From an uncultured cyanobacterium (GTDB lineage: Bacteria > Cyanobacteriota > Cyanobacteriia > Cyanobacteriales > Microcystaceae): a stretch of 25,771 nt of DNA. The translations under genes were made by a program, and so were the position numbers. Of this stretch, positions 1-11,398 are shown piece by piece. The stretch covers positions 1 to 25,771 of the forward strand of contig CAWEDJ010000027.1 in assembly GCA_963807635.1 (NCBI GenBank). The letters run 5' to 3'. The notes beneath the pieces were generated by a model. The model searched no databases, was not told the DNA's origin, and worked only from the letters and a program-made list of their open reading frames with translations. Position 1 is the stretch's first letter, and every line of letters starts with the position of its first letter.

Positions 1-2
1 AA

Positions 3-38
3 CCCCAAAACCCCAAAACCCCAAAACCCCAAAACCCC
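3..38 (+). repeat. Ciliate-type telomere, C-rich strand (C4A4 repeats)
   Basis: CCCC(AAAACCCC)4 read directly at the window start. C4A4 is the telomere repeat of nanochromosome-bearing ciliates such as Oxytricha, Stylonychia, Euplotes and Nyctotherus. Confidence 0.95.
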
Positions 39-55
39 AAATTTTAATTTTATCG

Positions 56-729
56 TCAAATAATGTATTTCATTCGTCTTGGTTAATATCCATGATTTAT
101 TTAGGTATGTGACTGAAATTCCGCAAAAACATGTATCGTCATCCCCCTATTCCGGAAAAGTATTTATCAAATTCTTCTACTATTCGGCCATGAGTAATTA
201 CTATAAGAATCTATGAGATGCATATGGAGAAGAAATAAGGAGCTGCTGCAGTGTGCTGAACTCCATTTCTTACCCTCTCCACCGTTTGCTTCATAATTTT
301 TCCGGATATTTCCACATTTTTGTCCTCCATTTCCCACGACCTTCACTTTCTCGTACAGCATTCCCATAACTTTCTTCTCGTTTCTTCTCCACAAACAATT
401 TACCATCGGATTCTCATAAAAATGGTGCTCATACAATTCCTCCAAAAATGCATTCTCCATCACTATTTCTCCAGTCACTATTCATGGATTTAACAATTTC
501 ATTTGCTGTCTGAATCGTCCTCAATAATGGCGAGCAAAAGATAGTCACTTTACTTCCGCTTCAAATACGTTTTTAAATATTCACCCGTAATTTTGGCCTG
601 TTCTTTTCCTGCAATGGATAAGCATGGATCATAAGATATATCATAATGGTATTTCTCAGTTTCACTAAAAACATAATCGGCCCGCTCTCCATGTCTTAAA
701 TATATAATACGTTTTGCCAGAATTTGCAT
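56..729 (-). CDS. Eukaryotic (ciliate) histidine phosphatase / phosphoglycerate mutase family protein, about 220 aa, reconstructed across several frame switches
   Basis: Hand translation of the minus strand from ATG 729 gives MQILAKRIIYLRHGERADYVF...YDPCLSIAGKEQAKITGEYLK. From 551 it reads KVTIFCSPLLRTIQTANEIV, from 478 VTGEIVMENAFLEEL (the listed 167..478 ORF), from 210 ILIVITHGRIVEEF, and from 140 DDTCFCGISVTYLNKSWILTKTNEIHY. The RHG, SPxxRxxQTA and THG motifs occur in the correct order. The stop position is uncertain (TGA 58-56 in an adjacent frame). Confidence 0.85.
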
Positions 730-753
730 TTATTTTATGTATTTTATTTCCAC

Positions 754-802
754 TTTTGGGGTTTTGGGGTTTTGGGGTTTCGGGGTTTTGGGGTTTTGGG
801 GG
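754..802 (+). repeat. Ciliate-type telomere, G-rich strand (T4G4 repeats)
   Basis: Six G blocks, (TTTTGGGG)n, with one T>C at 781 and a final G5. It is inverted relative to 3-38, so it closes a linear molecule. Confidence 0.95.
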
Positions 803-1276
803 AATTTTTCCACCTAATTCTTACCTAATTCTTAATCAATCAACTTAGTCAATTATCATGGAAAGATAAAAGTTTAAATTTTACCAAGCAAATTTTTAGA
901 TTTTTTGGAGTTAAGATTCTAATTTTTGGTATTTCTTCAGAAGATAAACATTTCAGATTTACATTCCTTGATTTTTGTAAATAAGACTCTAGAAATTGAT
1001 AGGTCTATCAATAAATTTTACTCTATTAACAAACTGGACACCCTTTTAAATGCCTAGCTATAGACGACTTCTCTCTCTTAGTGCTTTTTGAAAATTATTT
1101 TTCTATATTTTCTAAAGAGAATGGCGTTAATTGATATTATTATATTTTAAACATCCTAAAATCCTTATTTTAATCAAGCTCTATTAAAAACTGATCGTCC
1201 CAATTCCTGCTCTTTCTCATGTTTTGCCTTTAATTCAAAAAAATTATTGTTTTTCCTTACTTTCCCCGTCGAATTC

Positions 1277-2808
1277 ATGCCTGATTCAAATACTTCCTTT
1301 GCCAGCTATTATCACGAACAAACCAAGTATCATCCAGAAACGATCGCGTCAAAAAATAAAGTTTTGGACTGGGGAAATCAGCCCTCAGTTTTCAAAGAAT
1401 ATAAAATCGGCACAATCTACGATTTACAGCCGTTTTTGACCGCTTCTCCTACAGAAGACCCCGACATAAGAGCATGGGAAAGATTGTCTCGACTTTTAGC
1501 CTGTAGCTATGGTCTGACCGCGAAAATTCCCAGCATGGGAAATCCGATTTACTTGAGAACGGCTCCTTCGGCAGGGGGACTGTATCCCGCAGAGGTCTAT
1601 TTGATTTCTAGAGGAACAAAGCTTTTACCCTCTGGTTTGTATAGCTATCAACCCCTGACCCATTCCTTGATCCATTTTTGGGCTAGTGAGGTTTGGACAA
1701 AGCTGAAAGAAGCGTGTTTTGGTCATTTAGCTTTGAAAAATACGAGTTTTGTCTTGGTGACAACGGCAATTTTTAATCGTTCGGCTTGGCGTTACGAAGA
1801 CCGAGCCTATCGACGGATTTTTTTGGATACAGGTCATCTTTTAGGCAATATTGAGTTGGCGGGCGCGCTCTATGGCTATCATCCCCACTTAATCGGCGGT
1901 TTTCGAGATCAGGCGATGAATGATCTACTCTATCTTGATGCCGATCAAGAAAGCGTGATGACCGTGATTCCTTTGACGGATTTACAAACGGTTAACCCCG
2001 CGATCGCCGAATCTCCCCTAACCGCCTTGCCTTCTCCCATTGGTCAGGATTTTCTCTCAGTCAGAAAGGGAGAATTACTCAAGACCTTTCACCGCGCAAC
2101 GGAAATTCAGGCGCAAACGCCGAAGGAATTATTGCTATCTCAAATCACTCATCAGGGGTCGGAAGATAAATATAATTTTCCCTTTTGCCTAAAGATCTCC
2201 ACTCAGACATCTCCGATCAATTGGGGAAATAATCTAGCAGAACTAGAAAAAACAATTCTCCGTCGGCGTTCCACTAGGGCTTATACAGGGGAATTTTTAA
2301 CCCTAGATGAATTGAAGGCATTGCTAAGTTTTACCTATCAGGCTCAAGATTATGAAACACAAAATCTCGACTCCAGCCCTGATTATTTTGATTTAAGTTT
2401 AATTCAAACCTTTATTGCCGTTTCAGGGGTAACGGGTCTGGAAGAAGGCTGTTATTATTACGCTCCCCAAGCCCAGGAGTTGCGCCAAATTCGGTTTAAA
2501 AATTTTCGATCTGAATTACATTATCTCTGTTTGGGTCAGGATTTAGGACGGGATGCGGGGGCTGTGATTTTCCATACGGCGGATCTCCAACAGGCTGTCC
2601 AAAAATACGGCGATCGCGCCTACCGATATCTCCATCTAGATGCGGGACACCTGGGACAACGCCTAAACCTAGCCGCTATGCAATTGGGTTTAGGGGTGAG
2701 TGGCATTGGAGGGTTCTTTGATGATCAGGTCAATGAGGTGCTAGGTATTCCCGAAGATGAAGCGGCACTATATATCACAACCCTTGGCGGCCTCGGTTTT
2801 CGATCTAG
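1277..2808 (+). CDS. SagB/ThcOx-family dehydrogenase (tandem nitroreductase domains)
   Basis: Motifs RTAPSAGGLYPAEVY, WRYEDRAYRRIFLDTGH, RRRSTRAY and KYGDRAYRYLHLDAGH. ATG 1277 is the likely start. Adding one base at about 2786 restores the family-like end YITTLGRPRFSI* (TAG 2806-2808), so the ORF-track tail to 3025 is probably an artefact. Confidence 0.85.
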
Positions 2809-9857: not shown

Positions 9858-11398
9858 AAATAAGTGTTGACAAGCTGGAATCAAGTATTGAGATAACGTC
9901 CAGGCATCAACGCCTAACTCTGTGCGTTCTTTAACGGCTAAAATTCCTGCTTGAGCGTGCCACCAGGCTGATATTGCAACCAGTTTTTCTAGAGAATCTT
10001 GGGCATTTTGAGCGAGAATTCCCCCCATTAATCCTGTTAAAACATCTCCACTTCCTCCCCTGGCGAGGGCGGGTGTACTTTCAGGAATGACCCAAGTTTG
10101 ACCGTCGGGATGGGCAACAATTGTTCTGGCTCCTTTGAATAAAATAATTGCCTGACTGTATTTTGCGGCCTCTTGTACTGCTTGAATGCGATCGCCGTTC
10201 GTTAAAGAAATTTCAGGAAATAAGCGTTTAAATTCTCCTAAATGGGGCGTTAAAATAGTCGGCTGAGTTCTTTTTGTTAAACCCGAAACCGTACCGAGTT
10301 GAGCCAAACAATTCAGTCCATCGGCATCTAAAATCAGGGGAACGGTCGCCGTTAACACTCTTTCAATAATGGGCAAAGCGTCTAACGTTAAGCCTGGCCC
10401 CGCCGCAATGACGGTATAATTTTCAAAATTGCTGGCTAAATCGGGTAATTCCGCGATCGCGCCTGTTTCAGTTTCGGAACAATCGATGATTAAAGCTTCG
10501 GGTAAATGGCTGACTAAAAGTGGTTTTAAAGATTGGGGAGCCGCAATGGAAAGCATTCCGACTCCACTGGCTCTAGCTCCTAATCCTGTTAAAATCGCGC
10601 CGCCTGCATAACGCCGTGATCCACAAATCAGCAATAAATGACCCTGTTGATATTTATGGGTTAACAAAGGACGAGATAAGGGTAGCGATCGCCGAGCTAG
10701 ATTAGGAGTTACTATTTTTATAGAAGAAGCATCAGAAATGACCTTTTTAACAACCGCCCCAGGAATCCCAAAATCCAATCTTTCTACTTTTCCCAAATAC
10801 TCCAAGGCTTGATCTTGAAAAAATGCCAATTTCCATAAACCCAGACATAAACTATGGGTTGCTTTAATGGCAATACCTAAAACTTCCCCCGTATCTGTAT
10901 GAAGACCCGACGGTAAATCAATACTGACAATCGGTTGCGGCCATTGATTTACCTGTTCGATCGCTTCTCCAATCCATCCCACCAAAGGACGATTTAAGCC
11001 AAAACCAAACAAGCCATCAATGAGAACATCACAATTTTGGAGTAATTGAAGATCTTGGGTAAAAGGAATCCCCAGAAATTGGGCATATTGGGCATGGCAA
11101 CCCGTTAATTCCTTAACTTTTTCAAAAGGATGATAAACTAAAACTTGATAGTCTTTTAGCCATATCTCCCGTGCAATCACCAAGGCATCTCCGCCGTTAT
11201 GACCTGGCCAACTAGGATTCCTATGTGCTTATATTGATCAATGGGGTAAAGTTCCTGAAGGCGATCGCTCATCAACAGAGCCGCTTTCTCCATCAAAGCA
11301 GCTACGGGCATCCCATTGGCAAAAAGTTGCTCTTCAACTTGTCGCATTTGTTCCGCGTTGACTAACACTTGTTCAAAGATTTCATCGGCTTGAGTCAT
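9822..11398 (-). CDS. nnr: Bifunctional NAD(P)H-hydrate epimerase/dehydratase (YjeF), frameshift at about 11207
   Basis: N-terminal LMEKAA motif. [10 protein letters not shown] is restored by adding one base. Also [28 protein letters not shown] and [11 protein letters not shown]. Confidence 0.92.

Follow-up and report, generated by a model that had tools for sequence, protein, structure and literature searches.

Gene-sized macronuclear chromosomes that are capped by C4A4/T4G4 telomeres have been described for the ciliates Nyctotherus ovalis (PMC2633312), Euplotes aediculatus (PMC10449743) and Strombidium cf. sulcatum (PMC10901763). For N. ovalis, a member of the Armophorea likewise carrying C4A4 telomeres, the published account reports coding sequences in which all three stop codons are avoided, with leaders of 60–184 bases and trailers of 33–125 bases (PMC2633312). 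The C4A4 telomeres of E. aediculatus are reported to average 38 bp, +1 frameshifts occur at AAA-TAR, and a TTGAA motif is given for only 36.4% of the chromosomes (PMC10449743). A second body of literature concerns artificial joins: chimeric reads were found to make up 0.88–1.41% of the reads of ligation runs, arising either from physical ligation or from two molecules being read as one (10.1101/2021.02.21.432182), and contigs joining organisms across domains have been reported from long-read metagenome assemblies (10.1101/2025.04.22.649783). The locus described here resembles these published cases in the sharp join of unrelated organisms and in the accompanying change of gene-level taxonomy and of sequence quality. 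In contrast to the plasmid and bacterial reads and the bacterial-archaeal contigs of those reports (10.1101/2021.02.21.432182; 10.1101/2025.04.22.649783), however, one of the partners is here a ciliate and, moreover, an entire eukaryotic chromosome with both telomeres, so that its natural ends are visible.

The window, that is, the whole stretch of 25,771 nucleotides that was analysed, represents the complete contig C27 of the cyanobacterial genome G000 (107 contigs, 4.03 Mb), and the contig starts inside a telomere. As proposed in the initial annotation, C4A4 and T4G4 arrays enclose exactly one gene, which lies on the minus strand (Table 1); the array at the right is preceded by TTTT at 754–757 and, with its six G blocks, occupies 758 to 801/802. 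The C4A4 repeat at the 5' end, like the T4G4 repeat at the 3' end, faces inward, in accordance with the definition of a nanochromosome, and a single gene running from 729 to about 57 between short non-coding ends is what a gene-sized chromosome requires. Matches to a 20-base telomere motif (at most one mismatch) number seven in the window and were obtained in none of 100 shuffles, arrays of three blocks are confined to C27 among the 107 contigs of G000, and only one substitution is present over ∼80 telomere bases. Neither ARAGORN nor Rfam identified RNA genes in the window. Composition taken alone is a weak signal: positions 45–744 are among the bottom 1.5% of the 11,456 windows, and the block ranks 44th of 71 outlier runs.

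Table 1. Coordinates of the features of the window (contig C27) and of the foreign blocks at other contig ends of genome G000.
Feature	Location	Strand	Remarks
Left telomere, AA(C4A4)4C4	1..38	+	AA, then five C4 blocks at 3–38
3' trailer, very short	39..58	-	stop position inferred from sequence
Histidine phosphatase branch 1 gene (phosphoglycerate-mutase-like, Sts/UBASH3-like), ∼220 codons	57..729	-	ATG at 729; profile alignments
5' leader, purine-rich	730..757	-	between telomere and ATG; purine skew +0.40 in the first 50 bases
Right telomere, G4(T4G4)5	758..802	+	T-to-C substitution at 781, fifth G at 802
Chimeric junction	802..803	.	no extra sequence between telomere and host DNA
Native AT-rich intergenic DNA	803..1276	+	in relatives between divergent guanidine operon and SagB-type gene
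SagB-family dehydrogenase/nitroreductase, host	1277..2801	+	one base deleted near 2790 compared with G003 and G004
Foreign block (set L168–L171)	C28:87233-124822		∼37.6 kb
Foreign block (set L168–L171)	C102:54477-57787		∼3.3 kb
Foreign block (set L168–L171)	C65:1-5615		∼5.6 kb
Foreign block (set L168–L171)	C11:60827-61629		∼0.8 kb

In the repeat and its orientation, the presence of one gene, the short purine-rich leader, the total size of ∼0.8 kb and the length of the telomeres, bases 1–802 thus resemble the chromosomes known from Nyctotherus, Euplotes and Strombidium (PMC2633312; PMC10449743; PMC10901763). They differ (i) in having a leader of just 28 bases and a trailer of under ∼20 bases, both shorter than the ranges given for Nyctotherus (PMC2633312), (ii) in carrying the TTGAA motif at neither end, which is also the case for many Euplotes chromosomes (PMC10449743), and (iii) in lacking the subtelomeric purine skew at the 3' end (-0.16), where the coding sequence nearly reaches the telomere. 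The last reading frame remains open into the telomere, and TGA (58–56) and TAA (52–50) are located one frame off; the true stop would therefore call for one more indel. Hence, the earlier description of the segment as an intact ciliate chromosome is borne out for its layout, and not for the deposited sequence with its at least four frame breaks and missing in-frame stop.

Judged by its family, the gene presumably encodes a branch 1 phosphomonoesterase that is cytoplasmic and works via a phosphohistidine. The motifs RHGERAD, DPCL, SPLLRT, YPE and ITHG follow one another in successive pieces between which the frame changes, and the positions RHG, DPxL, SPxxR, E, PE, R and HG, shown by alignment A2 to be conserved or invariant, are all found across the pieces, including the catalytic core of PF00300 (RHG, second Arg, distal His). 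Taken singly, the best piece matches PF00300 with E = 0.0029 and 17.7 bits, which is below the gathering cut-off of 21.7, and four of the five pieces, which are only 43–104 residues long, were assigned to no Pfam family; the four closest full-length relatives (P0053, P0007, P0063 and P0058) are all above the PF00300 cut-off. The C-terminal piece (110–57) looks family-like by eye, though without alignment support (0.2 bits, with shuffles reaching up to 2.0). The first 82 codons match the phosphatase domains of Sts-2 and Sts-1 (best E = 2.5e-6, for Sts-2), which represent the nearest solved structures; an earlier protein search with these codons retrieved nothing among 50 candidates.

When compared with 1.84 billion proteins, the first piece gave 14 matches, including itself and one repeat protein. 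Ten of the matches were looked up, and the four that bear taxon names are all from ciliates (phosphoglycerate-mutase-family proteins of Stylonychia lemnae and Paramecium). A read-through ranking of 140 homologues is headed by P0053, P0007, P0063 and P0058 (28–34% identity), followed by Stylonychia and Paramecium, and places the three phosphatases of the host itself at 120, 134 and 138 and the one named Euplotes homologue at 84; since this set was built from ciliate-like seeds, the ranking contrasts ciliates with the host and not with all bacteria. A tree of 43 rows, comprising the top 28 matches, all named rows and the three host phosphatases, with the remaining matches left out, puts the gene into a 33-row clade that holds all named ciliates (93/88; the node is not starred and the branch is long), next to P0053 and P0063 (83/89, not starred), and the host phosphatases outside the clade uniting the gene and the named ciliates. 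The protein affinity, which had been singled out as a check of ciliate against bacterial origin, came out, among the named relatives, on the side of the ciliates, and together with the inward-facing pair of telomeres it upholds the identification as a ciliate nanochromosome. With the ciliate phosphoglycerate-mutase-family proteins, e.g., CDW74263.1 and CDW81206.1 of S. lemnae, the gene shares the PF00300 motif positions; it is set apart from the relatives in this family by its low identity even to the best of them and by being broken in frame as deposited. P0007, which is among the closest relatives, is encoded on a contig of 245,714 bases; this may be a further chimera or come from a ciliate whose chromosomes are large. 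A homologue of the gene was absent from all telomere-bearing loci fetched, and two scans of metagenome collections gave 482 pattern stretches, none of which was confirmed as a relative, and no exact 23-base match.

When the gene is aligned with its closest relatives and frameshifts are allowed for, breaks near 549, 476, 324 and 292 are needed whichever of the four penalties is applied, and further ones near 258, 211 and 144 at lower penalties. This amounts to 4–7 breaks in ∼600 bases at penalties 8–14 (seven over 708–111 at penalty 8) and to ten at penalty 5. The ciliate part accordingly exhibits ∼7–12 breaks per kb compared with ∼0.4 per kb in host genes, it being understood that cross-species indel counts mix true divergence with errors. 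For the host, eight breaks were flagged in ∼19.4 kb of coding DNA aligned with a genome of the same genus, G004; at least two others, around 2790 and 19788, escaped this count and are seen against both G003 and G004. Only one indel separates the window from G004 between 803 and 2790. The high density in 1–802 and the low density to the right of 803 indicate that sequence quality changes at the junction; the very high indel density noted in the initial annotation therefore holds for 1–802, and not for the rest of the contig. Compared with G003 as well as with G004, single-base indels in or at genes of the host lie at 2790, 3445, 3579, 3703, 14406, 14984, 19788 and 20881 and affect, among others, the end of the SagB-type gene, a Wzz/tyrosine-kinase-like region, a type IV pilus ATPase and a glutamine amidotransferase; these are probably consensus errors and not pseudogenes.

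We read the breaks in the phosphatase gene as uncorrected read errors. The best alignment path (penalty 8) contains no stop in 196 aligned codons, and the path at penalties 11–14 contains one TAG. TAA or TAG takes the place of none of five glutamine codons on the former path and is represented by that one TAG on the latter, and none of five cysteine codons is TGA on the best path; in loci of the table-6 type from our genome scan, in comparison, about half are TAR (29 of 59 in L039, 32 of 66 in L086). The code would thus lean weakly away from TAR being read as glutamine, which would favor an armophorean or euplotid, five codons being too few to settle the matter. One might then suppose that the join is artefactual and that some of the breaks are nonetheless programmed ribosomal frameshifts of the Euplotes type, or tiny introns. 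The first break, a +1 shift at AAG-TAA, is the sole one located at a stop codon and is reminiscent of the AAA-TAR shifts of E. aediculatus, in which telomere length is likewise similar (PMC10449743), and the lack of TAA and TAG among the glutamine codons of the best path would agree with such a code. We nevertheless regard this as unlikely: the site is AAG-TAA and not AAA-TAR, the breaks near 476, 324, 292 and 144 lack an in-frame TAA or TAG at the shift point, TGA is absent from the cysteine codons, and the single named Euplotes homologue ranks low. One Euplotes frameshift path running consistently through the gene was rejected, as translation beyond the first shift departs from the frame that is conserved. 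Introns fare no better, with no AT-rich GT-AG candidate of suitable length covering the breaks and the stretch around the first of them already falling short of its length in the homologues.

Turning to the junction, the AT-rich DNA that had been described as leading from the telomere into cyanobacterial genes is indeed host DNA, and is 93% identical to G004 beginning exactly at base 803. Examination of the region upstream of the SagB-type gene, which had been recommended as a check, revealed what is missing: in G004 the neighbour to the left comprises a Guanidine-I riboswitch, a ureohydrolase gene, genes resembling HypA and HypB, and a gene for an ABC substrate-binding protein (L013:11227-15523), and G003 has the same left neighbour (L014). 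We take this cluster to resemble an operon for the use of guanidine. No match to 3,460 of its bases (L013:12064-15523) was found in G000. Further to the left, G004 matches contig C101 of G000, with the homology stopping inside the substrate-binding gene, 36 bases before the end of C101, which carries no telomere. Since C101 ends in the middle of a gene and 3.46 kb are missing, the ciliate block sits exactly at a gap of the host assembly. The last 36 bases of C101 (L172; C101:13678-13713), which have no match in G004, are possibly another short chimeric tail. The missing bases could also reflect a real deletion in the strain, as they have no match in G001 and only a short one in G002, both from the same genus, in which loss of the operon thus occurs. 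Elsewhere in the window, at 9858–9862, G004 is ∼1 kb longer (L015:9560-10541), between the phosphomannomutase and carbohydrate-kinase genes.

Other contig ends of G000 are foreign as well. A Markov composition model applied to the assembly yielded 71 outlier runs, and the four strongest are GC-rich blocks touching contig ends (Table 1). In all four, homology to five genomes of the same genus stops sharply at the change in composition, and the foreign parts (for C28, the first 4.8 kb of the block) have no match in those five genomes. The fifth run, C39:1001-6100, turned out to be an rRNA operon and was discarded.

The layout of the window recurs in other prokaryotic genomes. A scan for (C4A4)3C4 over 185,579 of them resulted in at least 142 rows representing at least 136 loci. 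Among the 136 loci listed, 105 have the array at the end of a contig of at most 12 kb, as is expected for mis-binned nanochromosomes, an assignment that is collective and not made locus by locus; two more are at the ends of longer contigs and 29 are internal. Fifteen of the listed internal loci are on contigs longer than 12 kb (14 contigs), and seven of these 14 exhibit the window's layout, with the inner side of the telomere reaching the contig end within 4.5 kb. Both telomeres are present on four (L048, L061/L062, L076 and L164/L178) and only the inner one on L038, L051 and L123/L177. The hosts, which include a verrucomicrobium, an acidimicrobiacean, bacteroidetes and an alphaproteobacterium, are unrelated to the cyanobacterium. 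In most of these contigs the GC content jumps sharply (from 0.32 to 0.70 in L062; little in L051 and L076), L038 contains a 444-codon ThiF-rhodanese frame under a ciliate code, and in L062, L048, L038, L174 and L178 it is the end of the telomere that abuts unrelated host DNA. Six of the 14 contigs (L046, L050, L105, L116, L144 and L166) carry arrays that look like bacterial simple repeats. Such arrays (L046, L105, L050, L116, L144) include two from isolate genomes, and in G040 an 18-base motif is matched 66 times. Among metagenome-assembled prokaryotic genomes (L032–L167), many contain short contigs with C4A4 telomeres at their ends, in some cases several per genome, and arrays of 28, 36, 44 and 52 bases are seen repeatedly. 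On a 157 kb contig, a T4G4 array (L165; L176:12517-12544) lies 3.9 kb short of the end; it has no partner array in its genome and is flanked by AT-rich DNA at the left and GC-rich DNA at the right.

Particularly instructive is L174 (1170–4292), a block with two telomeres (20 bases at the C end, 36 at the G end) and DNA on both sides. The flank at its right is host DNA, setting in midway through an AhpC/TSA gene and recovered from 24 of 25 relatives. The 1,169 bases at its left encode something else and have no counterpart in any of the 25. The two flanks being unrelated to each other, L174 represents a three-part concatemer and not an insertion. Its genome has another contig start capped by a telomere (L058/L175). 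With a C-strand telomere of at least 38 bases at the left of the window and 20 bases in L174, telomere asymmetry gives no clean single-strand signature.

In view of the anatomy observed, a gene of ciliate affinity, the neighbour present natively in relatives, the gap in the host assembly, the contrast in errors, the further foreign contig ends and the same layout in other genomes, a ciliate nanochromosome was almost certainly joined to the end of a cyanobacterial contig during sequencing or assembly, which makes it contamination and not gene transfer. The nanochromosome is real and of a known kind of ciliate chromosome; its fusion with the cyanobacterium is an artefact and not a real feature. 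Very probably, a chimeric long read that contained the whole nanochromosome became the end of C27. In this reading, bases 1–802 are the complete macronuclear nanochromosome, with its one histidine-phosphatase gene, of a ciliate from the same sample, and its telomere end was most probably joined end-to-end to a cyanobacterial fragment in the sequencing library or in the read stream. The assembler would have taken the chimeric molecule as the end of C27 where the neighbouring 3.46 kb of the host failed to assemble, and the ciliate part, having little or no other coverage, would have kept the indels of the raw read, with the sequence to the right of 803 being corrected by other reads. The use of long-read technology, the single supporting read and the choice between ligation and in-silico fusion are what we infer here. 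Being short and abundant and having two natural ends, nanochromosomes would make ready partners. The chimera by ligation or assembly that the initial annotation had favored is hence corroborated by the missing native neighbour, the four other foreign ends and the recurrence of the layout in unrelated genomes.

A misjoin made by the assembler in the absence of any chimeric molecule, i.e., the merging of separate ciliate and cyanobacterial reads at the low-complexity telomere by way of an erroneous overlap or path in the graph, is quite improbable. Long-read assemblers have been reported to produce cross-domain chimeras (10.1101/2025.04.22.649783), the 37.6 kb foreign end of C28 may exceed the length of one read, and the native bases to the left of the junction in G003 and G004 are loosely T/G-rich. 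The five native bases adjacent to the junction, however, share nothing with the telomere, and the agreement (by eye) in 15 of the 33 columns further left is near what we estimate by chance for such a composition (∼11–12). Moreover, five loci (L062, L048, L038, L174 and L178) are likewise joined at the telomere end to unrelated host DNA.

For the real insertion from a eukaryote into a cyanobacterium, which had been put forward as the alternative, we found no support. It would require that a whole ciliate chromosome, telomeres included, was taken up and integrated in place of the guanidine operon, that the contig ends in the far telomere, and that the gene has since decayed to a frameshifted pseudogene. 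The absence of the operon from G000 and the broken gene would agree with this, and an island with eukaryote-type actin and profilin has been described in Microcystis (PMC3254629). Yet a true insertion has host DNA on both sides that is syntenic in relatives, and here the left flank is missing: C27 begins in the telomere, and the matching end of C101 is without one. In addition, (i) a single substitution in ∼80 telomere bases and the stop-free 196 codons, the latter qualified by the one TAG on the path at penalties 11–14, would fit indel errors better than decay, (ii) positions 45–750 were matched in none of 30 other cyanobacterial genomes of the order, (iii) a two-telomere block with host DNA on both sides was not encountered among the 136 loci listed plus L174, and (iv) the contrast in indels across 803 argues indirectly against even depth. 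We thus consider both the uptake and the replacement of the operon by a complete chromosome to be highly improbable; if true, this would be a striking transfer from a eukaryote to a bacterium caught with the chromosome ends intact. Least probable of all, and already largely refuted, is the notion of a bacterial gene between simple repeats that are likewise bacterial. C4A4 arrays can be found within bacterial sequence (L046, L105, L116, L144), and cyanobacteria do have related phosphatases, but the arrays of L046 and L105 are single, no inward-facing pair capping one gene was seen in the genomes of those four loci, and both the taxon-named matches and the position of the host phosphatases in the ranking and, subject to the unstarred node and long branch, in the tree point away from it.

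The origin of the join as a chimera of a ciliate nanochromosome and host DNA is biologically ordinary in that both the type of ciliate chromosome and the type of sequencing artefact are already known. Another ∼47 kb of foreign sequence at contig ends of the assembly should be trimmed. We found no published account of ciliate nanochromosomes contaminating metagenome-assembled genomes in the portion of the literature that was accessible, and make no claim that there is none. The finding serves as a warning that ciliate nanochromosomes are present in species-representative prokaryotic genomes, either mis-binned or fused to long host contigs, and that fusions of this type can mimic gene transfer from eukaryotes to bacteria. 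As telomeres mark natural ends and thus make the exact position of a join visible, telomere-marked joins could be used to measure the carry-over of chimeras into long-read metagenome assemblies.
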